In this document: positions 1 through 17,272 of the stretch, one piece after another
Layout: each line of letters opens with the position of its first letter
Position numbering within the stretch: the stretch's first letter is position 1
From: Candidatus Lokiarchaeum ossiferum
Lineage (GTDB): Archaea > Asgardarchaeota > Lokiarchaeia > Sigyniarchaeales > Promethearchaeaceae
DNA: 32,000 nt
Assembly (NCBI GenBank): GCA_025839675.1
Contig: CP104013.1
Span: 450,001 to 482,000 of the forward strand
Reading direction: 5' to 3'
Translations under genes and position numbers: made by a program
The notes under the pieces: model-generated
Seen by the model: the letters and a program-made list of their open reading frames with translations, nothing else
Database searches by the model: none
Told to the model about the DNA's origin: nothing

Positions 1-45
1 CTAAGTTTTCAAATTTAATTAAACTCAAGAAGGTCACTGTTCTCT

Positions 46-888
46 ATGAAACATATTTGGATTATCAATAAATTTTCATCTACAAATTTACTTTATCGGA
101 ATTATTCTGATTTTAGTATCGATCCTGATTTGGTTAGTGGTTTATTGACTGCCTTAAACTCCTTTTCAGAAGTTGAACTTAAAGCTCATGGAATTTCCTC
201 GATACATATGGGTGGTTTAAAGTGGGTATATTCAGATCAAAAAGAAATGCATCTAATGCTGATTGCTGCAGATAAAATTGAAGCTCAAACTGAAGTCCTT
301 CGGGCTCGTTTAGAGGTAATCTTCAAAATGTTCATTGAGAAATATGGAATTATCCCTGAACAAATGGAAAAAACCTTAATTGATTCGGTCCGCTTTGATG
401 ATTTTGCCGAAGAATTGGATTTATTAAAAGCCCAATGGATACAAGCAGAAGAAATAATCACAGGGGGAGCCGCAAAAATATTTGATCTTTTAGGCGTTTT
501 TCAGCAGATCTACTCGGCTTTCAATAATATTATTCGACTTAACTTTTTCCAAGCAGATTACGATAATACGGTTATCGAAATAAAAATGATATTGGAAAAT
601 ATGAAGGGAACCCCAGAATTCAAAAAATATCCCGAATTGTCAAAAATTAAATTTGATAAATATGGATGGGATGTAATTAACTTAAACCCAACGAATTTGG
701 ATGAAAAAGTTCTGGCACGAATCTTAATTATGTTAACCCTCCATTTAAACAATATTCTTACAACGAAATTAAGTAGATCGTCAAAATATAATGCGTATTC
801 CAAAGAAATCTTTCCATTATTGCTTGAAAAATATGATCTACTCGTTTCATTGGATATTTTGCATACTTTAATGCGAGTTTTTTTGTAG
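46..888 (+). CDS. Hypothetical protein with an N-terminal longin/roadblock (TRAPP Bet5/sedlin-like) alpha/beta regulatory domain and a helical C-terminal half
   Basis: 280-aa ORF on the same strand as, and just upstream of, cheW-cheA. The N-terminal ~100 aa (IWIINKFSS..LLY...DPDLVSGLLTALNSFSEVEL...GISSIHMGGLKWVY....MHLMLIA) follow the hydrophobic periodicity and D..L.SG.L.AL..FS motif I associate with longin/TRAPP-type domains. The rest is predicted helical. The fold assignment is by eye only. Confidence 0.55.
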   Translation: MKHIWIINKFSSTNLLYRNYSDFSIDPDLVSGLLTALNSFSEVELKAHGISSIHMGGLKWVYSDQKEMHLMLIAADKIEAQTEVLRARLEVIFKMFIEKYGIIPEQMEKTLIDSVRFDDFAEELDLLKAQWIQAEEIITGGAAKIFDLLGVFQQIYSAFNNIIRLNFFQADYDNTVIEIKMILENMKGTPEFKKYPELSKIKFDKYGWDVINLNPTNLDEKVLARILIMLTLHLNNILTTKLSRSSKYNAYSKEIFPLLLEKYDLLVSLDILHTLMRVFL

Positions 889-1040
889 AACGAAGATTCA
901 AAATAAAAAATTCTGAAATTTCATGATTTGGTTTCCCAAACTAGTTTTTTTTTTTGAAAATTTCATGCAAATTTTATGGATTTTTCATGAATTTTTTTTT
1001 AACACTAAGGGATAAATTCCTTTTTGTGCAAAAATCACAT

Positions 1041-1772
1041 ATGAGTAGCATGCTAGATGGTTCCATAAAACTAGTAATATTCGAATTGGCATCGGAAGAA
1101 TTTGGAGTAGATATCCACAAAATTAATTCTACGGTCAGAATGCAAGAAATTATCAAAGTACCCAATGCAAATGCGTTTATTGAAGGTATTTTAGATTTTA
1201 GAGGTACACCTTTGCTCGTCATAGATCTTCGTAAGAAATTTGGACTGTCAACTGAGGCTAAAAACATAGAAAATATGCGAATTTTGATCATTGAGTTTCA
1301 ACCGCATAAAATCGGTTTTATAGTAAATGCAGTTACTGAGGTTAAACAAATCCCCTTTAATACCATAGAACCCGTTCCATCAAATATTTTAACTGATGAA
1401 CTAGAAGAAAAGTATTTGCTAGGGATAAGCAATTTAGAAAAAGGCGAGCGATTAATTTTAATGCTAGATCTAGCGAATATGTTTTCACCGCCAGAAATTG
1501 ATGAACTCAGTCGTCTACTCAATGATCAAGAGTTTTTGCAAAATTGTCTAAGAACTGGATTAGAAGAAATGAAAATCTATGATGAACAAACCGCCTCCAC
1601 ATTTGATCAAGAACATCGTAAAAAAATTGAATCTAAAATAGAATCAAATGATTCGAACAAAATAATTGAAGATAATATCTCAACTGAACGCAAAATTGTA
1701 CAAAAATTGGCAGTGAAAGAAATAGAAGACGAATTACAATTATCTATTAACTATAGCGACGAAGAAGAATAA
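1041..1772 (+). CDS. cheW: CheW-like chemotaxis coupling protein with an acidic C-terminal extension of about 100 aa
   Basis: Canonical CheW core: KLVIFELASEEFGVDIHKINSTVRMQEIIKVPNANAFIEGILDFRGTPLLVIDLRKKFGL....ILIIEF.....GFIVNAVTEV. The track ORF begins at a TTG at 954. I prefer the ATG at 1041 because it places the CheW core at the usual distance from the N-terminus. The C-terminal ~100 aa are E/D/K-rich low complexity. Confidence 0.85.
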   Translation: MSSMLDGSIKLVIFELASEEFGVDIHKINSTVRMQEIIKVPNANAFIEGILDFRGTPLLVIDLRKKFGLSTEAKNIENMRILIIEFQPHKIGFIVNAVTEVKQIPFNTIEPVPSNILTDELEEKYLLGISNLEKGERLILMLDLANMFSPPEIDELSRLLNDQEFLQNCLRTGLEEMKIYDEQTASTFDQEHRKKIESKIESNDSNKIIEDNISTERKIVQKLAVKEIEDELQLSINYSDEEE

Positions 1773-1790
1773 GACAATGAGGTACCTGAA

Positions 1791-3419
1791 ATGAGTAATA
1801 TAACTGATAATGGTGAAAATTCGGAAGACATAGTCGATGTTCTTCAATATCAAGAAGAATTAGAATTAGATGATGAAGAAATTGAAGAGATAACACATAA
1901 TCAAGAACAAAATAAAACGGTTTTATACATAACAATAACATTACAACCCGAAACCGAATTGAAATATACACGCGCATATCTATGTTTAAAAAAAGTTCGA
2001 GAATTTGGAAAAATATTTAAAACTGTTCCCAATGAAGCAAATTTAAAAGAAGAAAATTTCGATCGTAGTTTCAGAGCAATACTAATTTCTCAAGAAATAA
2101 TAGATATTCTCCCTCTAAAACAAAATCTTGGGAGTATTGCCGCAGTTGATTCAGTCGAGATCGTAGTATTCAACATGCGAGAATTATCTGAAAATTTAGA
2201 TGCGAATTCTCAAGAATCTAAAGGTAAAAAAAATAATATTATGGCTGTCCAAAATGTTAAGGTCTCGATCAAGCATTTAGATAATCTAATGAATTTAACT
2301 GGAGAATTATTAATCACCAAGATTCGTCTAGATAAGATTGCTCAACAAAGACATGTCAACGAATTGAATGAAACTTTAAACTTGATTAATCGTATAACCT
2401 TTGATTTACAAGATGAAGTACTTCAAATGCGAATGATTCCTGTATCTCATATTTTTGATCGCTTTCCAAGGATGGTACGAGACTTAACAAAATCCTTAGG
2501 AAAATTAATTGACTTTTCAATGGAAGGAAGAGAAATAGAATTAGATAGAACAATTATAGATGAAATCGGAGATCCTATTGTCCATCTACTTCGAAACAGT
2601 GTAGATCATGGAATTGAAAAACCAGATATAAGAATAACCAAGGGGAAGAATCGAATTGCTTCATTAAAATTACGCGCTTACCGAGAACGAAATTTTGTAA
2701 TTATTGAGATTGCAGATGATGGTAAAGGGATAGATTTTGATAAAATTAAACAAAAAGCATTAAAAAGAAATTTGATTACATCAGAAGAAGCTGATCAAAT
2801 GACAGATTACGACCTTAAACGGTTGTTACTAGGAGGAGGGATCAGTACAGCAGATAAAATATCGGAAATCTCAGGTAGAGGAGTTGGATTAGGTGTTGTG
2901 AAACAAAAAATTGAATCAATAGGCGGAATAATTGATGTTGATTCAAAATTAGAGAAAGGGACCAGGTTTTTATTAAAACTACCTCTTACTGTTGCCATCA
3001 TTAAATCACTTCTTGTAAGTTTGGGTTCCGGGAGAGATATGGAAATTTATGCAATTCCTATTAATAATGTGGTTCGTACAATCGTAATTCATGAGAGCGA
3101 GATTCGTACGATTAAAAATAAGGAAGTAATTACAATTATGGGAAAAATTGTCTCAATTGTAAGATTACGAAAGTTAGTTTCATATGAAGATAAATCCAAT
3201 GAAGATCAAACACTCAAAAATGTTAAAATGAAAACAATAATCGTCATTGAACGTAATGGGATGGAAGTCGGATTAATGGTAGATTCTTTGATTGGTCAAC
3301 AAGAAATTGTTATTAAAAGCTTAGGAGGTTTGTTAAAAGCAATCAATGGGGTTTCAGGAGGAGCTATCCTCGGAGATGGGAAGGTAGCATTGATTATTGA
3401 TGTAGGTTCCCTTTTTTAA
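1791..3419 (+). CDS. cheA: CheA-type chemotaxis histidine kinase (P2-like, P3 dimerisation, P4 HATPase and P5 CheW-like domains); no recognisable P1/Hpt domain
   Basis: Dimerisation helix VKVSIKHLDNLMNLTGELLITKIRL. N-box HLLRNSVDHGIE. G1 DDGKGID. G2 SGRGVGLGVV. C-terminal CheW-like domain (YAIPINNVVRTI...GLMVDSLIGQQEIVIKSL...ILGDGKVALIIDV). GAGGT ribosome-binding motif 8 nt upstream of the ATG. The gene starts 18 nt after the cheW stop. Confidence 0.9.
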   Translation: MSNITDNGENSEDIVDVLQYQEELELDDEEIEEITHNQEQNKTVLYITITLQPETELKYTRAYLCLKKVREFGKIFKTVPNEANLKEENFDRSFRAILISQEIIDILPLKQNLGSIAAVDSVEIVVFNMRELSENLDANSQESKGKKNNIMAVQNVKVSIKHLDNLMNLTGELLITKIRLDKIAQQRHVNELNETLNLINRITFDLQDEVLQMRMIPVSHIFDRFPRMVRDLTKSLGKLIDFSMEGREIELDRTIIDEIGDPIVHLLRNSVDHGIEKPDIRITKGKNRIASLKLRAYRERNFVIIEIADDGKGIDFDKIKQKALKRNLITSEEADQMTDYDLKRLLLGGGISTADKISEISGRGVGLGVVKQKIESIGGIIDVDSKLEKGTRFLLKLPLTVAIIKSLLVSLGSGRDMEIYAIPINNVVRTIVIHESEIRTIKNKEVITIMGKIVSIVRLRKLVSYEDKSNEDQTLKNVKMKTIIVIERNGMEVGLMVDSLIGQQEIVIKSLGGLLKAINGVSGGAILGDGKVALIIDVGSLF

Positions 3420-3610
3420 TACAATATTAATGGGTGATTGGAACAGCAACGACTCTTTTCGAAAGCGAGATAAATTCTGAACTTTATTTGACTAATGAAA
3501 TGCTTTTTATTACTGAAACATCAAAAAATTAAAAAAAAAAGTCGAATTAAAAAAAGAAGTAATTTTTTATCATACTTTTCAAAAAGAAATCTTTTCTATG
3601 TTGTTTTTTT

Positions 3611-3874
3611 CTAATTGTTTTGTTGAAGATAAGTAAGCACTTTTTTATCCCAAGTATCTAGAGATGTTCCAGATAATTTGCTTCCATTTGGCATCATATT
3701 TACAGGGACTAATGCCATCCCTAATTTTGCTTTAATTTTTTTCCTTACGCATTTTTCTTGTTCTGGACCTTTACAAAATTTCCGAACAAAACCTTTAAGA
3801 GCTAAACGACGTTTTTCATCTCTTTCAAATTCCTTGAAAAAGGCACATGATTTTAAACTTGGACATTCTGACAT
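3611..3874 (-). CDS. Small basic four-cysteine protein (hypothetical)
   Basis: 87-aa ORF with the motif CPSLKSCAFF...FCKGPEQEKCVRK...VPVNMMPN. The composition looks protein-like, whereas the overlapping + strand ORF 3678..3905 is F/L/S-rich and looks spurious. Confidence 0.5.
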   Translation of the reverse strand: MSECPSLKSCAFFKEFERDEKRRLALKGFVRKFCKGPEQEKCVRKKIKAKLGMALVPVNMMPNGSKLSGTSLDTWDKKVLTYLQQNN

Positions 3875-4100
3875 TTTTAATTGTGATGATTTAAAAATGT
3901 CATGAATATATATTCACGGTTTTAGAAATTTTCTATACTCTTTCTCACCAAAAAACTAATAATCAATTCAAGGTTCAAAAAATTTCATGAATAGAATTAA
4001 CATCAAAAAAAAAGAAATGGGCTACTGATGATTCTAATAGGGTACCAACCTTTTTCTGTCATGACTACCAATTTTTATTCCCTAAAGGTGTGAAAAAAAA

Positions 4101-5378
4101 ATGATCTATTGTCCAAATTGTGGGGAAGAACTCGTCGATGAAGCCGTTTTTTGTGCAGAATGTGGCACAAAGATCGATTTACGACATCCTTCAGATATAA
4201 AACCCAAAACCCAAAAAAGAACTCAAAAAACCCCCCCTCATCGAAAACCTACCCCTGCTTATTCAAGTGTCCAAATGAATAAGAAGGCGAGGTCTCCAAA
4301 TCAAACCAAAACTGCAGGTAAAATTGGCATTGCTATAATCGTAGGAATTATGGTGATCAGTGGATTATCTTATGGTTTTTCATTTATTGGTCCAAAAACT
4401 ACCCTTCAAGACACAGTTACATATCAAGATCAAGATCCAATTCTTAGTGCCCAAACAATGATTCCAGTGAGAATGGATATCACATCCGCAGATGTGAAAT
4501 TCCAATATAATTCAACAATCATGAATAATAGTATTAAAATTCAAGCAAACTATGATCTATTGGGCAGGTTCAAAGAAGTTGAAGATGTGAATCAGATCTT
4601 AGATATTAATTTTTCAACCCTTAACGAGGAAATCAATTTTGAAGTTAAGTTTAAAGATGATAATAATGATTTTTCAGATAGAACTTCCATCAATATAACT
4701 TTAAGAACCGATTTAGAATATTATTTGGATATTGAACTTTATTCCGGAGATCTTATTATTGAGACGGGTGAAGATTGCGTCATTAACAGAATGGAGGTGC
4801 AATTGACTTCAGGGGATGCTCAAGTTATCATCACACCAAACAGTTACGTTAGATCTGCAATAAATATTAACTCTTTGTATGGAAATATTGATTTTACAGC
4901 AGAAAAAACAATTTTCAATTCTTCCTTATCTTTAACTGTTACTTCAGGAACCATTTCCAGCGATATTTCACAGTCGCATTTTCGGGGAATAATTGATTTT
5001 CAAATGACTACAGGTCAAATGAATTTAATCCAAAGTGAGATAACTTGTGAAAAATCTTTGATCTGGAATATGCAAGGCACATCTGGTGACATTTATTTAG
5101 ATCTAGAGCAGCATATTTCACCTTTAGCAAATATGTCAATTCAAGTTGAACTAATTAGCGGGGATATAGATGTAAATTATTTAGGAAATGCATCTGTAGT
5201 CAGAGCAATTGTTAATTCTTCCACTTCAACGGGAGAAATTAACTATCAAGCCGCTACTGGATTTAATGAATCAGATGGCCAATTATATTCAACAAATGTG
5301 GATATCTTAGTTGGATTTAATCTAGATCTATCAACTATAAGTGGAAAAATAGATTTTATTGGATCTAGTTTAAAATAA
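4101..5378 (+). CDS. Membrane-anchored protein: N-terminal zinc ribbon, disordered basic linker, one TM helix, and an extracytoplasmic beta-helix-like repeat domain (DUF4097/putative-adhesin style)
   Basis: N-terminus CPNCGEELVDEAVFCAECG (CxxC-x13-CxxC). TM segment IGIAIIVGIMVISGLSYGF. At least 8 degenerate repeats carry a (T/I)SG(D/T/K)I core (SGDLIIET, TSGDAQVII, TSGTISSDI, TTGQMNLI, TSGDIYLDL, ISGDIDVNY, STGEINYQ, ISGKIDFIG). AGGTG ribosome-binding motif upstream of the ATG. Confidence 0.75.
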   Translation: MIYCPNCGEELVDEAVFCAECGTKIDLRHPSDIKPKTQKRTQKTPPHRKPTPAYSSVQMNKKARSPNQTKTAGKIGIAIIVGIMVISGLSYGFSFIGPKTTLQDTVTYQDQDPILSAQTMIPVRMDITSADVKFQYNSTIMNNSIKIQANYDLLGRFKEVEDVNQILDINFSTLNEEINFEVKFKDDNNDFSDRTSINITLRTDLEYYLDIELYSGDLIIETGEDCVINRMEVQLTSGDAQVIITPNSYVRSAININSLYGNIDFTAEKTIFNSSLSLTVTSGTISSDISQSHFRGIIDFQMTTGQMNLIQSEITCEKSLIWNMQGTSGDIYLDLEQHISPLANMSIQVELISGDIDVNYLGNASVVRAIVNSSTSTGEINYQAATGFNESDGQLYSTNVDILVGFNLDLSTISGKIDFIGSSLK

Positions 5379-5384
5379 GTACAC

Positions 5385-5392
5385 TTTTTTTT
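5385..5392 (+). terminator. Oligo-T (T8) tract 7 nt after the stop of the 4101..5378 gene
   Basis: T8 run seen directly in the sequence. Archaeal RNA polymerase terminates at oligo-T tracts. Confidence 0.4.
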
Positions 5393-5690
5393 GCCAACTG
5401 AGTTATAGCATGTAATCCCACGACTTTTTGACTCCTACGGACCACAAACCAACGAATTGACATGACCGTTCATAGTCAATATTCCATGGAAACCTTTGAT
5501 AGAAGGATAGTCAATTGTCGTTCCGACAATCAACTTAGGATAGTCAAGATTGTGGAACCCTATGGACTGATAGGATAGTTAACATATTAAACTTTCAGAT
5601 AGTCAGGGGTCCGGCAAAAAGGAGTAAAAAATGCGCTCAAAATACGCTACGAATCAGTTAGGTTAAAGAAGCGAGATTAATTTTTTGATA
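5393..5690 (+). ncRNA. Candidate structured non-coding RNA of unknown family (boundaries approximate)
   Basis: The island is richer in G+C than its flanks and has no ORF. A TATA-like TTTAAAATAA sits at 5369-5378, about 25 nt upstream. Three T6-T8 runs follow at 5681-5709. The ends can pair (5394-5409 with 5646-5662, 14 bp with one bulge and two mismatches). Internal hairpins are 5456-5480, 5514-5530 (ATTGTCG-TTC-CGACAAT) and 5559-5574 (CCTAT-GGACTG-ATAGG). Transcription is not demonstrated. Confidence 0.3.
5472..5606 (+). repeat. Five phased direct copies of the (G)GATAGTCA(A) motif
   Basis: ATAGT(C/T)A cores start at 5472, 5507, 5540, 5575 and 5599, giving spacings of 35, 33, 35 and 24 nt. 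Copies 2 and 3 are GGATAGTCAA, copy 4 is GGATAGTTAA, copy 1 is CATAGTCAA and copy 5 is AGATAGTCAG. Confidence 0.85.
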
Positions 5691-6027
5691 TTTTTTGAGG
5701 ATTTTTTTTAATTTATGGTTTTCTCCTAATTGTTAGTTTGTTAATAATACGTATCGGAATCTTTTCATTATTCCATCCCTAAAATTGGAAAGTTTCTAAT
5801 ATGATTATCTCAGTTTTCTGAATGAAATGGCGCTTATTTCTTATTTCAAAACTCCTAAATTATGAAAAAAAGAAAATATGACCAAATGCTTTTAGGATCA
5901 AAAAAAAAAAAATAGAAGTAGCTCAAAAAAAATTGGACAAATTCTAAAAAAAATCTAGCGAAATAAGCAATATTCTCGGCACAAATTATATATAGGCTCG
6001 GAACCATGACTAAATCAAGCATTTACA

Positions 6028-6279
6028 GTGGAATCAAAAATGAAAATTGCCATTAACTACCGTGAAGAAATTGAAACCAATATCCGTGAAGATATAGAAT
6101 TTGTTCGAGATGAATTTGAATGTCTTTTCGGTCAAAAAAATAAATATACTCTCCAAGATAAAAATATTGCTATAGGATTACTAAATCACTTGTCCAAATT
6201 AATAGAAACCCCTATATGCTTAGATTTTCTATCTCGCACCCTTGAAGATTTAGAACTAAACTATCCAACCTTATTTTAA
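6028..6279 (+). CDS. Hypothetical small acidic protein
   Basis: 83-aa ORF from a GTG at 6028 (alternative ATG at 6040, MKIAINY...). I recognise no motif. The composition is plausible for a helical protein. Confidence 0.4.
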   Translation: MESKMKIAINYREEIETNIREDIEFVRDEFECLFGQKNKYTLQDKNIAIGLLNHLSKLIETPICLDFLSRTLEDLELNYPTLF

Positions 6280-6392
6280 ACCGACTTGATCTTCAATTTA
6301 TTCCTTTATTCTCGCTTATTTTCAAGAAGAATGAGCATCATTATAACGATCAGAATTAAGTTAGAACGGAAACAAAAAAAAACATTTTAACT

Positions 6393-7514
6393 TCAAGAAT
6401 TTAACATTTCGTCTGATACACCTTCATCATAATATCGCTTGCGTGTCATCCAACTTTGCTGAAATTCGGGAATTACAGACAAAATAGATCCACCAACCCA
6501 ATTTGAAAGTGTTCTCCCCTTTGGAGCAATCACCCTAATCATTTGAGCAACTTTTCCCATCTTATTTAATTCTGTCTCAATCTCTTGTTTCAATTTTACT
6601 TCAAAGAGAGGAAACTTAGATGAACCTCCTGTGATAAAAATATTTTGTAACAGTTCTCTACGAATATCCACATCACAAGACTGAGCAACATTCACTATGG
6701 CTTGAGGAAGACTCTCACATTCAATATTATGTAAGGAAGGATCAAACAACAATTCAGGTACAATAAAACGTTCACTCCCAATAGTAATCGTAGAAGAATC
6801 GGGAAGAACAAAATCTTTTTGAAAATTAGCATGATTCTTTAAATCATTGTCAAAATCTAAAGAACAGAAACAAGCACGTTCTTTTAGAACTCGAATTAAA
6901 TTTTTTTGCACAGAACTATCAACCGGGATCCCAAGTTCATGAACTTTTTTTGACATAAAGGAGTCCAACACATTTCCCCCCAAGGGAAGAAATTTAACTG
7001 CGTGTTGTAAAACATATGATTTGTAGATTGGAGTAATTCGAATATTTGAAGAACCCATATCAACCACAAGCCCAGTATCAAATCCACCAGAATACATAGT
7101 AAGCAAGGCCCCACGAACAGGATAATATCCCGCTACATTTATCTTCTCAAGAAATATTTCAAAGAGTTTCCTTTTGGACTCAATAGACATAAAAGGGTTT
7201 GTAGTGAACATTACTTTACATAAAGTAGGATCAACATGTAATAAATAAAATATATAATCTAAGATGGAAAGAAATTGATCCCAGTCTTCTATTTCCCCCC
7301 CTTTACCAATAGGAGAACTTACTTTGTAGAGTCCCAAGGAATCGATGATTTCGTTACCAATGAAAAGTTGTTTCTTTTGGTCGAATCCAATAGTTTTATA
7401 CTTAGGGGATCCTGTTATGGTAAAAAAAGAATAACGTGGCTCATTTTCTCCCCCAAAACCAATTTTGGTTGAAAATTGGCCCATGTCTATAATTACACTA
7501 TAAAAATTTTCCAT
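6393..7514 (-). CDS. Eukaryote-like actin-family protein (divergent Asgard actin or Arp-like paralogue)
   Basis: 373 aa that can be aligned by eye with actin along the whole length. [18 protein letters not shown] matches [38 protein letters not shown] matches [34 protein letters not shown] matches [26 protein letters not shown] matches [39 protein letters not shown] matches [27 protein letters not shown]. Confidence 0.9.
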   Translation of the reverse strand: [373 protein letters not shown]

Positions 7515-7724
7515 CTAAAAAATCCTACCCTCTTTCCATTTCATATCAATATAATATATATTGAAGATATTATAAATATCAACTTTACATAATAGATTGA
7601 CATAGAATAAATTAAAGATTTGGGTAATATCTCAGTTGAAATCGGAATAGGTTATTGGGGCATTCAGATGTATAACAAAATAAGATTAACTTTCAAAAAA
7701 ATAATTTAAGAAAAATATGGACCC

Positions 7725-8294
7725 TTAAGGATTTCGCTCAATGATCCTGCGACCGATTGTTTCAAACAAGAGATCAACGTTTTGACCCGTAAGTGCACTG
7801 GTTTCAACATAATCAGGAATTGTAAGTTGTTCTTTTAAATGGTCTACATGAGCCAAGCTAATCTTTCGATCTTCAGTCAAATCGGATTTATTCCCTACCA
7901 AAACCATAGGTAGATCTATTAATCCATCTTTAATTAACTCTGCATGCCAACTTTTGAGATTGCTATAAGTATGTGTACGAGTCAAATCAAAACCTAACAG
8001 TACACCATTTGCTCCATTGAAGTATACTTTGTGTAACAGAAAGAATTGAGGTTGTCCCGCAAGATCCCACAACATTAAATCAATTTTTACATCTTTTCCC
8101 CCAACATTAATGGTGATTGGTTGTTTGCTAATACTTACTCCAACAGTAGGAATATAATCTTTCTCAAATTGATGTTTTACGAATTTGCGAATGAGACTGG
8201 TTTTTCCAATGGAAGGATCTCCAATGACGATAATCTTATACACCCTATCACCTTTATCTCGTGTTTGCACGTATAATTCTTCTTCTTTACTCAT
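7725..8294 (-). CDS. Ras/Rab-like small GTPase
   Basis: All five G motifs are present: G1 GDPSIGKTS, G2 YIPTVG, G3 WDLAGQ, G4 GNKSD, G5 ETSAL. The 189-aa length is typical of the Ras superfamily. No C-terminal CAAX or CC prenylation motif. Confidence 0.9.
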   Translation of the reverse strand: MSKEEELYVQTRDKGDRVYKIIVIGDPSIGKTSLIRKFVKHQFEKDYIPTVGVSISKQPITINVGGKDVKIDLMLWDLAGQPQFFLLHKVYFNGANGVLLGFDLTRTHTYSNLKSWHAELIKDGLIDLPMVLVGNKSDLTEDRKISLAHVDHLKEQLTIPDYVETSALTGQNVDLLFETIGRRIIERNP

Positions 8295-8569
8295 GATAAA
8301 TCACTTAATTAATTCTCAATTATATAATAATTATCTTCGAGCCAAATAAATGTACTTCATTACCATCTGGTTAGCAACCTTAGGATTGTGAAAAACCAAA
8401 TTCAAATACCATTCAAAATTTCCCAAAAAAAAATGTGATTCCTTTCAAAAATCCTTAAGGAAGAAAAGTATTAAAGAACTAAAAAAAAACTAACAATATA
8501 GTCCGCAATATAAATCAAAATTTATTCAACAACAACAAAAAATTATATGAATAAAACGAAGGCAGAAGT

Positions 8570-9928
8570 ATGACAGCAACAAACCAAGAATCAATAGTGT
8601 TTTACCTAGATTTAGCCACCAAAATCTTAGGAAAAAAAGATATGGTGAAGTCGATTCAATCGTTTTTAGAAGAGAAATTAAAAAAAAATCCGGATACATC
8701 GTTTAGCGCTTTCTATTTTAAAGAAGGAAATGAGCCTTTTTTATCGGAAGAAGTCTCTAATATTAAAGATTTAACAAAAATAATCAACAATGATTGGAAA
8801 ACCCGTGAACAATCGGAATCAAACTTTGAAAATGGCCTCTTCTATTGTCTCTCATTTTTAGCTTCCAAAGCGGCCATTTCTTCGGGAAGTTTTCGAGTCA
8901 TTTGTATAAGCGATTTGCCGAGCAAAAAAGGATCCGAATATGCTGAAGCTTTAATGGCTTTGGTCGAGACGGTAAGGACATTTCCAACCTTTATTGATAT
9001 AATCAGAGTTGGAAAATCTGAAATGTACCCAGATGATGTAAAACTGAGAATAGTATCCACACTAACTTCAGGTGGGTTGTTTTACGCTTCGGATTCCAAA
9101 GAATTTAAATTAACTTTTGTAGGTTTGGCAAAAAACAAAACACTCCCAGATTTAAGAGTCGAAGGAGGCCAAGAAATTGATCAAGATAAGAAAACCTATT
9201 ATGAAAATTTAGCAAAAGCTCTCGTGCAAGGTCAAATAGGGAAAGAAAAATGTAGCCTGTGTTCCAAAAAAACATGCGATTACTGTAATGAAAAAGATGA
9301 TATTTATAAATGTAGTCAATGTGGGACATTTTACCATGAATGCTGCGCAGCCCTTTATTCTTGGAAATTTAATATGGGATTAAAACACATCTTTCGATGT
9401 ATAACCTGTGGAGCCATATTGAAGTTAGAAGAATCTCTTGTATATGAGATAAATGGGGAAACTATGCCAGATCAAGAAGAATTACCAACGATTGAGGAAG
9501 AATCTGATGAAGAAAAGTGGACTCCTGAAGCAGAACCAGAAGAAATAATCGAAGAACCCATTGTAGAGCCAGAGGATACCAGTGTTAGCGAATCAGTAGC
9601 ATCGGAAGAACAAAAACCTTCAGAAGATAGCAGTGATAGTAAAGTCGAAATGCGTCCCGGTTTGTTTGGCCCACGCCCAGTACCTAAACGACGAAGTGGA
9701 TCTAAACCAACAGAAATTGAATCAACAGAAACTAAACCCAAAGAAACTGAAGCCGCAATACCCAAGGCGAGTAAAGCGGAAAAAGCAATTAGTGCCCGAA
9801 AGAGTCTTGCTGAACGAAGAAGAAAAAATAGGTCTGGAAATGGAACGATTAGGATTTGCAGAGTATGTTCCACTCGATTAAAACCAAATGATCGTCGATG
9901 TCCAAAATGCGGTTCTCCAGCTTATTAA
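8570..9928 (+). CDS. Multidomain protein: vWA-like domain, PHD-type (C4HC3) zinc finger, acidic disordered linker, C-terminal zinc ribbon
   Basis: The N-terminal ~190 aa have a vWA-like pattern (IVFYLDLATK...SAFYF....FRVICISDLPS....TFIDIIRVG...LFYASD) with a degenerate MIDAS site (DLATK instead of DxSxS). Residues encoded by 9251-9409 read CxxC-x4-CxxC-x8-CxxC-x4-HxxC-x17-CxxC. The E/P/S-rich linker is about 110 aa. The C-terminus is CRVCSTRLKPNDRRCPKCG. Confidence 0.8.
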   Translation: MTATNQESIVFYLDLATKILGKKDMVKSIQSFLEEKLKKNPDTSFSAFYFKEGNEPFLSEEVSNIKDLTKIINNDWKTREQSESNFENGLFYCLSFLASKAAISSGSFRVICISDLPSKKGSEYAEALMALVETVRTFPTFIDIIRVGKSEMYPDDVKLRIVSTLTSGGLFYASDSKEFKLTFVGLAKNKTLPDLRVEGGQEIDQDKKTYYENLAKALVQGQIGKEKCSLCSKKTCDYCNEKDDIYKCSQCGTFYHECCAALYSWKFNMGLKHIFRCITCGAILKLEESLVYEINGETMPDQEELPTIEEESDEEKWTPEAEPEEIIEEPIVEPEDTSVSESVASEEQKPSEDSSDSKVEMRPGLFGPRPVPKRRSGSKPTEIESTETKPKETEAAIPKASKAEKAISARKSLAERRRKNRSGNGTIRICRVCSTRLKPNDRRCPKCGSPAY

Positions 9929-9937
9929 AGCACCCCC

Positions 9938-9945
9938 TTTTTTTT
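9938..9945 (+). terminator. Oligo-T (T8) tract 10 nt after the stop codon
   Basis: CACCCCC followed by T8, directly downstream of the TAA at 9926-9928. Confidence 0.4.
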
Positions 9946-10149
9946 AAAAATATTTTCTCAAAAATTCTTCTTGTTTCAAAAGCATTTAAGTAAAAAACTT
10001 TTTTGGTATTTCAAATAATTGTTGGCATATATTTTAAAGATCGAATTGCGTTAAGTATGTTGAATGACTGTTTTTTCAATATTTTCCAACAATATCTACA
10101 AAAAAAAAAATGTAACAAATAAATGCTTGTTTTAAGGTGAAAAAAAATC

Positions 10150-10404
10150 ATGACAAACCGAAAGAAAGTAAAAGCAGAAATTTCTAAAAATCTAGATAAG
10201 GACATTCAAGTATTAGCCGATATTGAAGTAGAAGAAAGAGACAAAGTATTTGAAGGTGATAGTAATCGATATAGCCAAATTCTTGAACAAAGGAAACAAG
10301 ACAAACGTGAACGTGAAGATGCAAAGAAACAAAAAATCCATCTAGGAAAACGAAAACATATTGAAAAACGAGCCATAGCAGAGGTCGAAGAACAACAAGC
10401 ATAA
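10150..10404 (+). CDS. Hypothetical highly charged (K/E/R-rich) small protein
   Basis: 84-aa ORF, strongly charged and probably helical. No motif recognised. The overlapping antisense ORF 10184..10426 is hydrophobic and low complexity and looks spurious. Confidence 0.4.
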   Translation: MTNRKKVKAEISKNLDKDIQVLADIEVEERDKVFEGDSNRYSQILEQRKQDKREREDAKKQKIHLGKRKHIEKRAIAEVEEQQA

Positions 10405-10562
10405 ATATCAAATCATGGTTTTCCAAAGGAAAATCATTGACCTACTTTTTTTTTGAATTATAGTCAGAGAAAAAACATCCTCACGAAATGCTTCATATTC
10501 TTTTAATATACTCCTAATCTTCAGATATTTACTAATTGTAAGAAGAAATGTGATATAGAAAA

Positions 10563-11003
10563 ATGCCAGTAAAAGATGGAGATAAGATAAAAGTCGAATA
10601 TGAAGGTTCGTTTGATGATGGGGAAATTTTTGATTCTACAAAGATGCATGGTGGCGAGCCGCTTGAATTTGGAGTCGGCCAACATCAGGTAGTTCCTGGA
10701 TTTGAAATGGCTATGCTAGGTAAAGAAATCAATGAAGAATTTCAAATTCACCTTGAACCAAAAGATGCATACGGGGAATATCATGCAGAAGGAGTACAAG
10801 CGATCCCACGAACCCAATTTCCCCCTGAAATGAATCCTCAAGTAGGAATGATTGTTGAATTACAACAACAACATGGAGATCACACTCACCCAATCCCAGC
10901 TAAAATAGTTGATGTTAATGAAGAAGAAGTAAAATTAGATTTGAACCATCCCCTAGCTGGAAAAGCCTTAAATTTTAAAATTAAAATTGTAGGAATCAAT
11001 TAA
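10563..11003 (+). CDS. FKBP-type peptidyl-prolyl cis-trans isomerase (short archaeal/SlyD-like form with an insert-in-flap domain)
   Basis: KVEYEGSFDDGEIFDST......PLEFGVGQHQVVPGFEMAMLGKEINEEFQIHLEPKDAYGE, then ...LDLNHPLAGKALNFKIKIVGI. GTGAT ribosome-binding motif upstream of the ATG. Confidence 0.9.
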   Translation: MPVKDGDKIKVEYEGSFDDGEIFDSTKMHGGEPLEFGVGQHQVVPGFEMAMLGKEINEEFQIHLEPKDAYGEYHAEGVQAIPRTQFPPEMNPQVGMIVELQQQHGDHTHPIPAKIVDVNEEEVKLDLNHPLAGKALNFKIKIVGIN

Positions 11004-11154
11004 TTCTTTTTACTTCATTATCAAATGAATATTCAAATGGAGTTATTTTTTTATTGTTTTCTAACTAAAAGAGAAAAAAGAACGATGTCTTGAATGAGAT
11101 TAATCCAGAAAGAATTTGGAAATGCTTAAATACTTGCTATAAGACATTATCAAT

Positions 11155-12114
11155 ATGTTAAAAAAAAATTACATTTATGTAACTAAACATACAAATCAAT
11201 ATTCAAAATATTTTACAATTTTAATAGGAATTATAATCTTTTCATTTCTGAAGGTAAACATTATTATATTGGAATCTAAAATATATAGTAACGATATTGA
11301 GCACATTCCAAAATCTGCATTACATTTACAACTTGTAAATGAAAGTATCCCCCATATAATCTCACCTGGAAATCAAACTTTTTTTGAGTTTGATCCAGAG
11401 AAAACATTTCAATGGTCTGTGTCCGATCCGAATTGTTCCTATTCTGCCAATTATTCCATTTTATTAAATTTTGGTTTAATGGACAACCATACTAATCTTT
11501 CTTGGTTTGAATCAGCGCAAATACATTTTTCTGCTGCAGATATTTCTCCTGGTATATACAACTTGACACTTCAAGTAAATGACGGATGGGGTGCAGAGGC
11601 TAACGATACCATTATTTTAACAATCACACCCAATGAAGCACCTACGATTACTGGGAACAGAGGAGTCTTTATTTTTCTGGATGAAGAATACAACGGCGCC
11701 CCAATCAGTTTGAACTGGACTATTAAAGATAATCATACAAATAATTCTTTTTATTCAATTTTCTGTGATTCTAATCCGATCCCGAACCATCAGAATATAT
11801 CTTGGAATTCTGGAGACCAAATAGCAATAAGAACGTGTAACATAACAGAAAATGAATACACTTATGTTTTGAGGGCATTTGATGGCTATGGTAAAAATTC
11901 ATCGTATATAGTAGAAATTTTTTGGGATAAAACAGGGTTTGTTGAAGAGATAGTAGAGGAAGTAGCGGAAGAAGTGTTGGAAGAAGTTATCGAGGAACTT
12001 TTTGATGGAGATGGGTATTTCCCAGGATATGATGTCTTATGGATTTGTTTAATTGGATTATCTACAATCTTCCTATGTGTTAGAATTGAAAAGAGAAAAA
12101 GAATTGTAAAATAA
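11155..12114 (+). CDS. Secreted or membrane-anchored surface protein with Ig/PKD-like repeats and many N-glycosylation sequons
   Basis: N-terminal signal-anchor FTILIGIIIFSFL. PKD/cadherin-like strand pattern YNLTLQVNDGWGAEANDTIILTITPNEAPTI. At least 14 N-x-S/T sequons. Acidic EE(V/I) repeat linker. C-terminal FPGYD plus hydrophobic helix plus RIEKRKRIVK. Confidence 0.7.
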   Translation: MLKKNYIYVTKHTNQYSKYFTILIGIIIFSFLKVNIIILESKIYSNDIEHIPKSALHLQLVNESIPHIISPGNQTFFEFDPEKTFQWSVSDPNCSYSANYSILLNFGLMDNHTNLSWFESAQIHFSAADISPGIYNLTLQVNDGWGAEANDTIILTITPNEAPTITGNRGVFIFLDEEYNGAPISLNWTIKDNHTNNSFYSIFCDSNPIPNHQNISWNSGDQIAIRTCNITENEYTYVLRAFDGYGKNSSYIVEIFWDKTGFVEEIVEEVAEEVLEEVIEELFDGDGYFPGYDVLWICLIGLSTIFLCVRIEKRKRIVK

Positions 12115-12168
12115 CGGCAATAATAGGTGAAATTAAAAACAAACAATTTAAATATCAATAAATTGGTT

Positions 12169-14157
12169 TTATTCATCTTCTGAATTAATTAGAGCAATTT
12201 GATATAAATCACGAAATTCTTCGGAAAGCGAATAGACATAGCTGCCATGGGAGTATTGCTTTTGAACCATGTCTTCCCCAAAACTTTCGATCATATTATA
12301 CAGAATCATTCCTAAAGCAACAGAGCCTAAATATCTACCTGACTTCTTAATCTTTCTCAACATTTGGCAATCAGCAATTCCTTCAGTAGAACTATGTAAA
12401 ATTTTCAATATTTGGTGTTTTAGAACTTCACTTTGTTCAAAGAATTGTAGTTTTTCAATGATCATTGTTTTACGTTCTTGTGGATCCATATTTTGAAGTG
12501 AATTTTCTGGAACAAGAGTTGATTGTGCAATACTATTATCAAAAGGTGAATTACTTGGATTTTGATGAAATAAGGCAGAATTCAACTGGTTTCTATTTGT
12601 TTTATACACATCATCAGATTGGATCGAATTCATTTCCTGAGTGAATTTTCGTTGCACATAAGATGAAGGATCAGGTGATGATATTTCATCATTAGAGATA
12701 GGTGATTGATACAGAGGTCTATTTAATGTAAATTGACTTGTAGATTGGTTAGATGGATCATCAATTTGGCTTTGTGAGGGGTATTTTGAATAATTTGAAT
12801 TGACATTTGAATTGACATTTGAATTAACATTTGAATTAACATTTGAAATGACATTCGAATTGGCAGGATAATTCAAAACATTTTGATTAAATCTAATTCG
12901 TCCATTTGAATCGTTGTGATCTTCAGCTAAATGATTTGAATCATTATTTTGGAACGTTTTTTGTTGGCTATTTCGGAAAGATGCACTAAAACGTGAAGGT
13001 GCTGTTGTTGTTTTATATTCATCATCTATTCGTGGTGCTTGCCTAATACTAGAATGCTTTTCAGTAAAATTATAGGAATTTTGTAACTTTTTTGACTCAT
13101 TTCTATTTGTTTGTTTTTTGAAATTAGATGAACTGGATGATTTAGGAAAAACTAAGCTTTGTAAAGGTCTAGTTTGTTGCAAATTTTGACTTGAAATTGA
13201 GTTGTGGGCGTCTTCAGATGATCTCTTGTGAGATTTCGCTTGTATATTATGTATATTGGAATCATTCTGCTGATATTCAAATCTTCGGTTAGAATTTAAA
13301 GTAGAGTTTAACTTTGCAGTTATGTCAAAGGATTTCGGATTCTTATGTGCAATATGTTTTGGGTTAATTTGATTATGGCCTTGAAAATTCGAAGCGGAAG
13401 CAAATTTTTCGCCAGAATAATTCATTTGATTAATCTTGGGAGGCATAATTGGAGGTGGGGGTTGAAGACGTCTTTCAGAAGAAAAGTTCTTAAAATTTAA
13501 CGAATTTGCATTTTGCATAGAATTTCGAGAAATGTTTTGAATTGTCCTACGCTTAATTAAAGAGTTAACAGACTGATGAGTATGTTCATTTTGATTGGAA
13601 AAATTATCTTGAGAACGAAAAGAAGCATTTTGAGACAGATTCAAGTTAGAATTTGATCCTAAGTTTCTCCTTTGGTTGATTTCAGAAACATTTTTCCTTG
13701 TATTTTGCTGAGAATCAGGGAACGAAGGATACTCACTTGGAGTTGAATTTTGATAATTTTTTGAATCTTGGGAAATTTCTCTATGTGCTTGACTGTACAA
13801 ATTTGTGCGATTATGAAAATCGGATCCCATGGTACTTTGATTACATCCCAAATTTGAGGATTGTTGCTTACTAGTAATTTCCCTCATTTGAATTCTTCGG
13901 AGCATATTTTCTAATGCTTTATTCCGTTTGGATGGAATAGTGGGTTTTACTATTGGAGAAGATCTCTGAATTTTTTGTTGAGGGGTATTTTTATTTTTTA
14001 AAAGAGAATGTGATGTATCTTCCGTTGAATTGCCCTTACACTCGGGTTCTTGGAACATTGTATTCATAAAATAAACTTCATCACTTTTTTGAGGTGCTTT
14101 TTTAATAGTCTGAGTATAATCGAGCAAGTTATTTGATTTAGTTTGATACTTTTCCAT
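12169..14157 (-). CDS. Asn/Gln/Ser-rich low-complexity protein with a C-terminal globular (possibly winged-helix-like) domain
   Basis: One long uninterrupted ORF. The track starts it at a TTG at 14187. I prefer the ATG at 14157 (MEKYQ...), which has AGGGGA 13 nt upstream. About 560 aa are N/Q/S-rich, including an (NVNS)n repeat. The last ~100 aa (IIEKLQFFEQSEVLKHQILKILHSSTEGIADCQMLRKI...SYVYSLSEEF) have ordinary globular composition. Confidence 0.7.
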   Translation of the reverse strand: MEKYQTKSNNLLDYTQTIKKAPQKSDEVYFMNTMFQEPECKGNSTEDTSHSLLKNKNTPQQKIQRSSPIVKPTIPSKRNKALENMLRRIQMREITSKQQSSNLGCNQSTMGSDFHNRTNLYSQAHREISQDSKNYQNSTPSEYPSFPDSQQNTRKNVSEINQRRNLGSNSNLNLSQNASFRSQDNFSNQNEHTHQSVNSLIKRRTIQNISRNSMQNANSLNFKNFSSERRLQPPPPIMPPKINQMNYSGEKFASASNFQGHNQINPKHIAHKNPKSFDITAKLNSTLNSNRRFEYQQNDSNIHNIQAKSHKRSSEDAHNSISSQNLQQTRPLQSLVFPKSSSSSNFKKQTNRNESKKLQNSYNFTEKHSSIRQAPRIDDEYKTTTAPSRFSASFRNSQQKTFQNNDSNHLAEDHNDSNGRIRFNQNVLNYPANSNVISNVNSNVNSNVNSNVNSNYSKYPSQSQIDDPSNQSTSQFTLNRPLYQSPISNDEISSPDPSSYVQRKFTQEMNSIQSDDVYKTNRNQLNSALFHQNPSNSPFDNSIAQSTLVPENSLQNMDPQERKTMIIEKLQFFEQSEVLKHQILKILHSSTEGIADCQMLRKIKKSGRYLGSVALGMILYNMIESFGEDMVQKQYSHGSYVYSLSEEFRDLYQIALINSEDE
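12793..12864 (-). repeat. Six tandem copies of a 12-nt unit (ATTTGAATTGAC on the + strand) encoding (NVNS)n
   Basis: Units at 12793, 12805, 12817, 12829, 12841 and 12853. The first two are identical, the next two differ at 1 nt, and the last two are more degenerate. The repeat is in frame within the 12169..14157 CDS. Confidence 0.9.
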
Positions 14158-14759
14158 AGTCTGAATTTCCCCTACACTCAAAAACAATGGTATGAATCTG
14201 AAAATAACAAAGATGATATCATGTAGATAATATGGAAATGTGAAAAAATTACTTGAAAAAAGGAAAAAAAAGAAAAAAATGGTTGATTGATATGCAGCGT
14301 AATGTTGTAGGTGTTTGTGTGTGATTAAATAAGATTTATTTTTGAATCTGTTTCAATTTTCAATCGTGAGGTCGTAGGATATACATTATTAGAAATATTG
14401 ATGTGAATATATAGATTTCCAAATGGTAGACTGATTTTTTTTGTGCATAATGGTTCCTTCTTGTGGGTTTTTAAAAAAATTGTTAGTAGTAAGTGGAATG
14501 AAAATCAACAGTATTCCATATTTTATTATGAGTAGAATTGGTTTTGATCATAGTTTTTCACTTCGATTGAATGTTAACATATTTTTTATGTTAAATAATT
14601 ATTCTCTGATCTATATATAGTGTGTATTGTATATAAATATATGTACTTTTGATGTGTATCTATGTGATGCTATTTTTTTTTAAACTTGATTTTGCCCAAA
14701 ATAAGATTCCATAATTAAAACATTGAAATCTAAAAGATATGCAGATGATTTTGAGCCAT

Positions 14760-15062
14760 TCACATATTTAAGAAAGAAATTTGCAGCTCAATGTTAATAT
14801 TTGGAAAGTTCGGCAGACCTATTTTTCTTTTCAGTTGATAGGGAAGATTGTCAGTGATATGATTGGAAGAAATCACAACATCAACAATAATTGGATAGTA
14901 AAGTGAATAATGAAATGAAATAGATCGTATTCTGCAATGTTCAGAACAATATGAAGAAATTATTTTGTCAACTCTTTTTTTAATGGCCTTTTCAATGTGA
15001 TCATTTTTTGCTGGATCATAATAGGCTTTATTATCACTCAGGTTGATCTTGTGTTTTAACAT
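14760..15062 (-). CDS. Hypothetical protein (weak call)
   Basis: 100-aa ORF isolated between two long non-coding stretches. No motifs recognised. The composition is only moderately protein-like. Confidence 0.3.
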   Translation of the reverse strand: MLKHKINLSDNKAYYDPAKNDHIEKAIKKRVDKIISSYCSEHCRIRSISFHYSLYYPIIVDVVISSNHITDNLPYQLKRKIGLPNFPNINIELQISFLNM

Positions 15063-15310
15063 TTATTGCATATAAATAATAAAAAAACTTATTAAAAAAT
15101 GTGTGGATTCTTAATAAGGTAGTTTCTTGTTGAACCTTGTTTTACAGTCTAAAAAGATTATTTAATCTCACTTTTTAAACGATAAGTCAAAATACATTAT
15201 TTAAGTTAGAAAATATAGTGGAATGACGTAAAATAACTTATATTGGATAGAAAGGGAAGAGATAAAAAAAAGGAACATTGGCCCAAAATTGGTACGATCA
15301 ATTAAATATA

Positions 15311-16654
15311 TTATTCTGTTTCATCTTTTTTTTTTTTTCTTGAGAAGGGATTCTTGATTTTCTTTCCTATTACTTTGATTTTATCTCCTACGATTTTAAC
15401 TCCTTGAGTAAATGAATAGTGATTTGTGGCCAATTCTCTAAAATTCTCTGAAGTTACGTAAAAGATCATCATGATCAATAAAATAACTAGCGAGGCTAAA
15501 GCAAACAATCGATGACTGACCACAGGAAGCCCAAGATCCACTTCAAAGAAAGTTCCAAAGGGTAAAGAAGCATCTACAGTTACATTTAATAAAATCAATG
15601 AATAACCTAAAGCAAATCCTATAGCAATTATAATCAATGATAATTCACCCAACATTTTTTCGATGCGAGCCGAAAATAATAATTTTTTCTGGAAAAAGAC
15701 TTTTCGACCGGAATCAACTTTTTCTAAACGAGAATCATCAATACTTGCCACAGTATTCGTCTTACTTTGAATATAATAGAAAGCAGTAAAAATCAAGAGA
15801 AATAGTTCAGTAAAAGCATTTTCAATTCCTTGTGAAGGGGTGATTGCGGCAGAAAGTTGATAGGTTATGTATATATTAAATAACCCGAGAATAGCGATGA
15901 AGTTGCTTGTAGATGCATTTTTTTTTGCTGTAAAACCAAAAACTAAATATAAAATATTAACTCCAATTCCAATGGCTCCAATTATTATTGCATTTAAAGA
16001 CATGTTTAGTAAAATAAGGGCTATACATAATCCAATAGAGCCGATGGAAACTAATCGTAAAATTCCACCCATAAATAAGTGGTCATCTGATTTTCCTGCA
16101 GTGAGTAATTTTCCTTCGATTCCAGTGAAAAAATAAAAGATGATGAAAAACATGGAGATGGACGAAATAAACACCCAAATTAGTAAAAAGACCACTTCTA
16201 TTGCATCAAAGCCCACCCATACTTCTGGAATACCTATTACAAAGATTAAAATAAAAGCAACAATGATTCCAACAAACACGACGATTACTTGGAATAGATA
16301 TTGCTTCCAGATTGCAGCAATAATCCCAAAAACCACGAATACAATAGCAATAAATAACCCCAAATGATATAGTGTTGTAACTAGAGAAAGGCTCATCCAG
16401 TTAACTTCAAATGAATATAGTATAACAGCACCGATATTGATACCTAAAGTGAGAAACAAAATCATACTAAAGGGCAATAAGCGTTTGGTCAAAAGCGTTC
16501 TAAATCCACCAAAAATTTGGTCGACGAAAAATTTTCCCAAGGCGCGTTCCACATAACTTGATTTTGACATAACTTGAATTTGACATCTTGGTCTAATATA
16601 TTTTTTTATTTTTATCGATATCTTTTCTCTTCTCTTATAAGTCTTGTTTTTCAT
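15311..16654 (-). CDS. Polytopic integral membrane protein of unknown function (about 10-12 TM helices)
   Basis: 447 aa with many 20-aa hydrophobic segments separated by short loops, and K/R-rich termini. The opposite-strand ORFs 15867..16136 and 16140..16367 look like mirror artefacts. Confidence 0.7.
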   Translation of the reverse strand: MKNKTYKRREKISIKIKKYIRPRCQIQVMSKSSYVERALGKFFVDQIFGGFRTLLTKRLLPFSMILFLTLGINIGAVILYSFEVNWMSLSLVTTLYHLGLFIAIVFVVFGIIAAIWKQYLFQVIVVFVGIIVAFILIFVIGIPEVWVGFDAIEVVFLLIWVFISSISMFFIIFYFFTGIEGKLLTAGKSDDHLFMGGILRLVSIGSIGLCIALILLNMSLNAIIIGAIGIGVNILYLVFGFTAKKNASTSNFIAILGLFNIYITYQLSAAITPSQGIENAFTELFLLIFTAFYYIQSKTNTVASIDDSRLEKVDSGRKVFFQKKLLFSARIEKMLGELSLIIIAIGFALGYSLILLNVTVDASLPFGTFFEVDLGLPVVSHRLFALASLVILLIMMIFYVTSENFRELATNHYSFTQGVKIVGDKIKVIGKKIKNPFSRKKKKDETE

Positions 16655-16845
16655 CCTTTCATAATCTTTTTACTAACTTCTCCTTCAAATTTCAGTTTCA
16701 TTAAATATTCCTAATGAGAAAAAAATCTTTTAAGCACAGAGAATATTATTATTAATACGAGAATGCTATTTTGGTAAGATAAAAAAAATCAAGCAAGCAT
16801 AAGATTTTTATCCAAAATACTCAGAATATTAAACAGTGATAATTT

Positions 16846-17112
16846 ATGGCAAAAAAAGAGCTTTTTATTAAAAGAGTATATGAAATAGTTCAAGAATTGA
16901 AAATCCCCTTAGTGGACGAACGTGTTTATAATCGTGCAGATATTACAGATGCCAGATATGGATCCACGGTCATTTTTACCTTTGAAGAAGATGAAAGTGT
17001 GATTCGTGGATTTCTCGGTTTAGCCGAATATTACCATACAATTGTCTTGAAAAAGAAAGAAGTATTTTATATTTCGAGTGGTAGTATTCTTTTCAAATTG
17101 AATTCTAAATAA
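16846..17112 (+). CDS. Hypothetical small protein
   Basis: 88-aa ORF with balanced composition and a GTGAT ribosome-binding motif 8 nt upstream of the ATG. Confidence 0.45.
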   Translation: MAKKELFIKRVYEIVQELKIPLVDERVYNRADITDARYGSTVIFTFEEDESVIRGFLGLAEYYHTIVLKKKEVFYISSGSILFKLNSK

Positions 17113-17272
17113 TTTACTAGTTAGAATAGATTATATGATTTTTTTCTATCTATAACCTTCTTTTTTACATCCTTTCTCATAAAACCTTAGAATATTTCTA
17201 CAAAGATAAATAAAAGAAGTCTTTCAACTGAGGAATTAGTTAATTGAAATATTAAAATTGGTTTTCTGATAA

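Follow-up and report, generated by a model that had tools for sequence, protein, structure and literature searches.

The DNA analysed here, called the window, is a stretch of 32,000 nt (contig CP104013.1, positions 450,001 to 482,000; 32.3% G+C) from the Asgard archaeon Candidatus Lokiarchaeum ossiferum, and the subject of this analysis is a G+C-richer island in the gap behind the gene NEF87_000409. The 425-amino-acid (aa) protein encoded upstream of the gap is 100% identical to NEF87_000409 of strain B35. Genes for CheW and CheA precede it; behind it follow the gap, a 79-aa protein, an actin paralog and a Ras-like GTPase. The gap is free of open reading frames (ORFs) from 5379 to 6039, up to the start codon of the 79-aa gene, and at 661 nt it is the longest in the window, the runner-up measuring 572 nt. 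Both this property and the G+C enrichment had been claimed in an earlier reading made from the letters alone (the sequence-only reading), and both claims hold. The G+C fraction of 5394-5680 is 0.394, compared with 0.22-0.28 in all other intergenic gaps and 0.332 in coding DNA, and just 3.9% of 287-nt windows attain that level; the enrichment is genuine though modest. The island is a discrete, non-coding and unusually structured unit. Every element that the sequence-only reading listed in this gap is present, with coordinates wrong by at most one base.

Insertion polymorphism between B35 and its relatives

The locus was compared with those of strain B36 (CP163304, locus L094), a second relative (locus L009) and an outgroup (locus L014), all of which have the same gene order. 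B35 and B36 have an average nucleotide identity of 97.2% and come from the same Slovenian sediment source (preprint 10.64898/2026.02.13.705702). When B36 was aligned to the window by BLAST, it was colinear over 1-5379 at 98.3% identity and over 5669-17504 at 98.1%, the two blocks overlapping by the trinucleotide AAG. Window positions 5380-5671 are missing from B36, and this is the sole large indel over 17.5 kb, all others being at most 12 nt long. With a slash marking each junction, the empty site of B36 reads ...TTTAAGTTAAG/CTAAATTAATTTTTTGATATTTTTTGAGGATTTTTTTT... and the filled site of B35 reads ...TTTAAAATAAG/TACACTTTTTTTTGCC...GGTTAAAGAAG/CGAGATTAATTTTTTGATATTTTTTGAGGATTTTTTTT... The spacer is likewise without the island in L009 (362 bp; zinc-ribbon protein 75% aa identity, actin 94.5%) and in the outgroup L014 (412 bp; 51% and 83%). 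A synteny search of GTDB genomes with the actin gene as anchor returned five loci at 57-73% identity, none of them with island-like DNA.

Because the island is absent from B36, L009 and L014, parsimony places its gain in the B35 lineage. Judged from these alignments, it is a recent, strain-specific insertion that lies 1 nt after the NEF87_000409 stop codon. The proposal that the gap holds a conserved non-coding RNA (ncRNA) gene is not upheld, since related genomes show no conservation: neither the conspecific strain nor the two more distant syntenic relatives have the island. An assembly artefact is ruled out by the identical insert in contigs of three read sets (SRR22273277, SRR32148621 and SRR32148623). 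A 167-kb k-mer assembly contig passes straight through the island.

The AAG repeated at the junctions comprises three bases and is indistinguishable between a target-site duplication and microhomology. Within 6 nt of the junctions, B35 and B36 differ at 4 of the 12 flanking bases (5374-5375, 5673 and 5675) compared with 1.7% elsewhere, and this cluster points to error-prone joining or to import of a pre-formed allele. The left pair of substitutions also alters the last codon of NEF87_000409, which encodes K in B35, S in B36 and D in L009 and L014.

No known RNA was recognized in the island. Rfam gave no match at gathering score across the window and none at E ≤ 10 within 5370-5700; when 5200-6100 was searched at E ≤ 10, only chance-level matches elsewhere in the gap were returned. 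ARAGORN found no tRNA or tmRNA. These searches bear out the earlier statement that the island matches no known RNA such as signal recognition particle RNA, RNase P RNA or tRNA. A hidden or decayed coding sequence was considered and rejected: stop codons occur in all six frames, and concatenated six-frame peptides, used as a query against 5.8 billion proteins, had no match at E ≤ 10.

Foldback structure and box array of the insert

The insert is a foldback, in which imperfect inverted arms enclose a central hairpin and an array of short boxes (Table 1). Pairing between the two ends of the island, described by the sequence-only reading for 5394-5409 with 5646-5662, was confirmed, and in the minimum free energy (MFE) structures it extends to approximately 5384-5443 with 5607-5671, the ends pairing in the RNA and the DNA fold alike. 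The inverted-repeat alignment score of the insert is 17, compared with 9.5 ± 1.7 for shuffled sequences; a score of at least 17 was reached in 5 of 3000 shuffles and in 4 of 321 other genomic windows. Using nhmmer, the insert aligns weakly to its own reverse complement. At the termini, the right end is reached exactly by its arm and the left arm begins 4 nt inside the insert, with the terminal 26 nt matching at 18 of 26 positions. The local hairpins and the palindrome proposed earlier were also found in the sequence, and the hairpins in the MFE structure as well. Relative to shuffles, the folding z was −3.4 for the + strand as RNA, −3.7 for the − strand as RNA and −2.5 for single-stranded DNA (ssDNA), and the structure signal of the island therefore lacks strand specificity.

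The second component of the insert is a set of five direct boxes. Three copies of the motif GATAGTCA are exact (5506, 5539 and 5598), and two have one mismatch (5471, CATAGTCA; 5574, GATAGTTA). The five copies lie on the + strand at spacings of 35, 33, 35 and 24 nt. The five direct repeats and their phasing of about 34 nt (35, 33, 35) had thus been read correctly, apart from positions that were off by one. Elsewhere in the 32 kb there is one exact copy of GATAGTCA only, and the motif is not enriched outside the island within the window. When the island was simulated 1000 times with a first-order Markov model, 15 simulations contained any 8-mer in at least five copies (at most one mismatch), and none of the 1000 contained one that also had at least three exact copies; the array is non-random. 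ATAGT.A is the sole invariant stretch across the five units, and the spacers between the boxes have diverged. The array occupies the centre and right of the insert core, where its direct orientation breaks the symmetry of the foldback.

Arrays with a similar core were also encountered in other DNA. The box pair GGATAGTCAA-N18-28-GGATAGTCAA occurs at 3 viral and 77 metagenome loci, which proved to belong to many different organisms and to be phage control regions or tandem repeats with no relation to the island; they were set aside. One contig considered as a relative (L011, 32% G+C) has Shine-Dalgarno sites and encodes a GIY-YIG endonuclease; it is a bacterial phage and was likewise rejected. 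Two IMG/VR contigs of 53-55% G+C (L012, 10015-10060; L013, 5216-5261) carry 5-6 (G)GATAGTC-like boxes at distances of approximately 30-45 nt. Their iteron-like array lies upstream of a divergently oriented gene of an unrelated virus, and the shared core is probably a coincidence.

Table 1. Coordinates of the insert, its internal elements and the surrounding features (window positions)
Feature	Position	Strand	Details
NEF87_000409	4101-5378	+	425 aa, N-terminal zinc ribbon; insert begins 1 nt past the stop codon
TATA-like TTTAAAATAA	5369-5378	+	Candidate by consensus; overlaps last codons and stop of the 425-aa gene; B36 has TTTAAGTTAA
AAG junction repeat	5377-5379 and 5669-5671		Second copy closes the insert; either a 3-bp target duplication or microhomology at the junction
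Inserted DNA	5380-5671 (or 5377-5668, 3-nt AAG ambiguity)		292 nt; in B35, not in B36, L009 or L014
Left inverted arm	~5384-5443		Includes T8 at 5385-5392, brought by the insert; MFE and inverted-repeat alignment
Hairpin ATTGACATGA/TCATAGTCAAT	5456-5480		10 bp, one bulge; 3′ arm is the first box CATAGTCA; sequence and MFE
Array of five direct boxes (A)GGATAGTCA(A)	5471-5605	+	Starts at 5471, 5506, 5539, 5574 and 5598; core ATAGT.A
Palindrome TTCCATGGAA	5482-5491		Sequence
Central hairpin AATTGTCG-TTC-CGACAAT	5513-5530		Near the symmetry centre of the insert
Hairpin CCTAT-GGACTG-ATAGG	5559-5574		Sequence and MFE
Right inverted arm	~5607-5671		Reaches the final inserted base; MFE and inverted-repeat alignment
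Three oligo-T runs (T6, T6, T8)	5681-5686, 5691-5696, 5702-5709	+	Identical in B36, where they directly follow the stop-codon region
Upstream region of the 79-aa gene	5688-6039	+	Outside the insert; three-species block TTCTCGGCA.AAA.TATATATA at ~5975-5995
79-aa protein gene	6040-6279	+	ATG at 6040; no PADLOC or Pfam match
Divergent actin paralog	6393-7514	-	
Ras-like GTPase	7725-8294	-	

Flanking signals and transcript-like contigs

The sequence-only reading had framed the island with a TATA-like promoter and an oligo-T terminator, making it an independent transcription unit. The TATA-like sequence is present, but it overlaps the stop codon of the upstream gene and is only a resemblance to the consensus. 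Two substitutions between B35 and B36 (AAAA versus AAGT) raise its TATA likeness in B35, which is suggestive. The three oligo-T runs are also present; since the island-free B36 has them in unaltered form, they represent the original terminator of NEF87_000409 and belong to that gene. In contrast, the T8 within the left arm arrived with the insert, has no counterpart at this place in B36 and sits 6 nt past the stop codon.

The A-rich DNA to the right of the insert (5700-6027) is 99% identical in B36 and 74% in L009, and its promoter-like block is kept even in L014. The idea that 5700-6000 serves as an unwinding region beside iterons was accordingly not sustained, since this segment is conserved DNA upstream of the 79-aa gene and no initiator gene adjoins. 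Region 5688-6039 is itself unusually conserved, its 74% identity to L009 comparing with 52-65% for other spacers and 77% for the neighbouring coding gene; it also holds long A-tracts and a 16-codon upstream ORF from 6006.

Logan contigs of SRR32148620-23 were taken as transcript assemblies by inference from the positions of their ends. Contigs from SRR32148621 and SRR32148623 span 4072-5631 and 4072-5668, and thus run through the gene, the T8 and the island; this coverage carries no strand information. They stop at 5631 and 5668 and not inside T-runs. In two runs contigs begin at 4072, 29 nt ahead of the start codon at 4101; other contig starts, at 6028 and 6035, precede the ATG at 6040, and one at 8516 precedes that at 8570. 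Contig ends lie at 7571 (57 nt upstream of the minus-strand actin ATG) and at 10453 (within a T9 run). The promoter spacers 3875-4071, 5669-6027 and 8243-8515 are not covered by contigs of these four runs. If the runs are RNA-seq, transcription would take in the island, at the minimum by read-through from the upstream mRNA; an AT-biased DNA library could also account for the contig pattern.

Several contigs (L007, L093/L099, L096 and L103) end in exactly 30 nt of unrelated sequence, located 5-57 nt upstream of start codons. These tails look like template-switch chimeras at RNA 5′ ends or an artefact of the k-mer graph. Contig L007, whose last 30 nt diverge after 5668, was considered as evidence for a second copy of the insert and rejected, foreign tails of this length being common at contig ends (L093, L096, L103). 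Because such tails occur elsewhere at putative RNA 5′ ends, the tail between 5668 and 5669, where the insert ends on the right, is a hint of a transcript start on the minus strand. In another part of the window, contigs of SRR32148620 and SRR32148621 (L097 ~11343-11933 compared with L095 19054-19809) leave the B35 path within a gene of 251 aa, for which the call in L097 is 196 aa; the divergence may reflect an indel or a culture variant.

The order zinc-ribbon protein, 79-aa protein, actin paralog and Ras-like GTPase (4101-8294) is kept in four Lokiarchaeum-like genomes, including L009, L014 and L094. The actin paralog is divergent, with only 48-50% identity to most Asgard actins in the search. 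Bacterial-type chemotaxis genes at 954-3419 encode CheW and a CheA with P2, dimerisation, HATPase and CheW domains, and are conserved in B36 and L009. The second-longest ORF-free gap (14188-14759, 572 nt) has 25% G+C, and single-base indels between B35 and B36 are clustered at 14473-15188.

Origin of the insert

We consider the island to be a recently inserted, non-autonomous foldback element resembling a miniature inverted-repeat transposable element (MITE), or a fragment of a mobile element, with a probability of about 0.5. The 292 bp of DNA entered the B35 lineage 1 nt past the NEF87_000409 stop codon, within the oligo-T terminator region of that gene. According to this model, a non-autonomous element would have been moved in trans and joined via a 3-bp AAG duplication or via microhomology. 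The boxes, conserved amid diverged spacers, may be binding sites for a protein that mobilises or regulates the parent element, and on this view any RNA signal is secondary. Insertion has provided a new T8 right behind the upstream gene and displaced the old terminator 292 nt downstream, and the insert is probably transcribed, either by read-through or from an accidental promoter.

As the definition of a MITE requires, the insert is small and without coding capacity, and close relatives have the empty site. Bacterial and archaeal MITEs are non-coding elements of 100-500 bp with inverted ends that form a long stem; they are found in intergenic DNA behind a gene, are polymorphic between strains and have a short flanking repeat, a pattern that the insert resembles. 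It differs from them in having been seen once, with no parent insertion sequence known, in its imperfect arms and ambiguous 3-bp repeat, and in the array of direct boxes in its interior. A related comparison is offered by pneumococcal BOX elements (boxA-boxB(n)-boxC) and enterobacterial ERIC and BIME, which are bacterial, multi-copy and built with near-identical internal units of ~45 nt. In these, too, complementary terminal modules close a stem around iterated units that vary in number, and the elements lie behind genes and are co-transcribed. In contrast, the units of the insert have just a 7-11-nt core in common and no family of such inserts is known. We found no paper on MITEs or small RNAs (sRNAs) of L. 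ossiferum.

Several results weigh against a mobile element. Neither a second copy nor a parent element was found in the 202 kb searched, made up of B35 (44 kb), B36 (21 kb), L009 (21 kb) and further loci. Island 19-20-mers had zero matches (three queried against IMG/VR, one 20-mer against JGI metagenomes), and BLASTN against phage and plasmid collections gave just one chance match of 30 nt. The 167-kb contig argues against a further near-identical copy in B35. The arms are matched at only ~70% and, with TACA (4 nt) outside the left one, are not cleanly terminal, while the 3-bp repeat fits microhomology-mediated capture of foreign DNA equally. Finally, the G+C fraction of the insert (0.39) exceeds that of the host's intergenic DNA and of its coding DNA, possibly an indication of foreign origin.

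An alternative, which we regard as unlikely, is that the insert carries a self-contained structured RNA gene of ~270 nt, transcribed from the TATA-like box on the + strand or from ~5668 on the − strand, which would present several GGAUAGUCAA boxes to a protein or RNA partner, as a sponge does. Its G+C fraction of 0.39 compared with 0.25 in other spacers, the folding z of −3.4 and the absence of any T-run of at least 6 nt on the + strand between 5393 and 5680 would suit such a gene. So would the predicted exposure of the boxes, four of the five having an unpaired probability of 0.45-0.63 on the + strand compared with a mean of 0.42. The transcript-like contigs stop near the end of the closing helix (5631) and the insert boundary (5668), and the two B35 substitutions make the junction box more TATA-like than that of B36. 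However, the island is absent from the conspecific strain and two relatives, leaving no conservation and no homologs for covariation, and an Rfam search as permissive as E ≤ 10 gave no match. The terminator behind the island is ancestral and not the island's own, and both strands and ssDNA fold about equally. The contigs are continuous with the upstream mRNA and hence read-through accounts for their coverage; moreover, the transcript nature of the SRR runs is itself deduced, their library type being undocumented. Among known RNAs of this kind, the CsrB/RsmZ sponge sRNAs resemble the insert in being structured RNAs of ~300 nt with a repeated short GGA-containing motif, some copies of which are predicted to be unpaired. 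They differ in that a CsrA-like partner, conservation and a defined transcript are not in evidence here, and the motif would serve equally well as a DNA site. The RNAs of type III toxin-antitoxin systems (ToxI-like, with ~36-nt repeats) share with the insert about five tandem units of 34-36 nt, a short non-coding stretch and a nearby terminator. Here, however, the units have only ATAGT.A in common, the array is not followed by a ToxN-like gene, PADLOC and Pfam gave no toxin match among the neighbours and the 79-aa gene is also found in genomes without the array.

It is improbable, too, that the boxes serve as iterons, bound as DNA by a protein of replication, partition or regulation, and that the insert is either a piece captured from the control region of a plasmid or virus or a new regulatory module for its neighbours. 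The five direct boxes at 33-35 bp would stand about three helical turns apart, the boxes are conserved while the spacers have diverged, and the G+C content looks foreign. In addition, arrays with the same core lie in intergenic control regions of unrelated phage contigs (L011, L012 and L013), as is typical of protein-binding arrays; however, L011 is a bacterial phage, so that the common core is coincidental. No gene for an initiator, partition protein or regulator adjoins the insert, and all neighbours are also present in island-free genomes. The insert is located behind a gene, with more than 360 nt separating it from the start codon that follows, it has no match in the virus or plasmid collections, and the motif is not enriched elsewhere in the window. 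The iteron origins of plasmids and viruses and the archaeal origin recognition boxes (ORB) have a comparable arrangement, with direct repeats at about three helical turns beside an A/T-rich stretch. They differ from this locus in that no rep or orc1/cdc6 gene is adjacent, the A/T-rich stretch is a conserved promoter region older than the insert, and the array is absent in the sister strain.

We give the same low credence to functionless filler DNA, captured when a double-strand break in the terminator region was repaired through microhomology-mediated end joining or template switching. This explanation would account for the 3-nt AAG microhomology at the junction, for the four substitutions clustered in 12 flanking bases and for a sequence that is single-copy within the DNA searched. 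On the other hand, an end-to-end foldback (p about 0.002-0.01) together with a five-fold box array is unexpected for random filler, and no source sequence was found.

More doubtful than any of these is a bolder version, which would make the insert a mobile RNA gene complete in itself, or the first representative of an Asgard MITE family not yet described: a foldback of ~290 nt spreading between Lokiarchaeum strains, whose structured RNA would use its four or five GGAUAGUCAA boxes to titrate a host or mobile-element protein. Excluded are a housekeeping or lineage-conserved ncRNA, any known RNA family and a chromosomal origin, and readings as a ToxIN-like system, an origin, a C/D-box RNA or an H/ACA RNA were dropped because their defining parts are missing.

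A G+C-rich, well-folding island with a TATA-like box and oligo-T runs has the appearance of an RNA gene in an AT-rich archaeon; here the flanking signals are those of the neighbouring gene. If the insert is single-copy filler, it would be of little further interest. If further copies exist, the MITE-like element favoured here would be the first small non-autonomous mobile element described at sequence level in a cultured Asgard archaeon and would mark a genome change that separated B35 from B36 very recently. The ends and boxes of the element might also serve the development of genetic tools for Lokiarchaeum.

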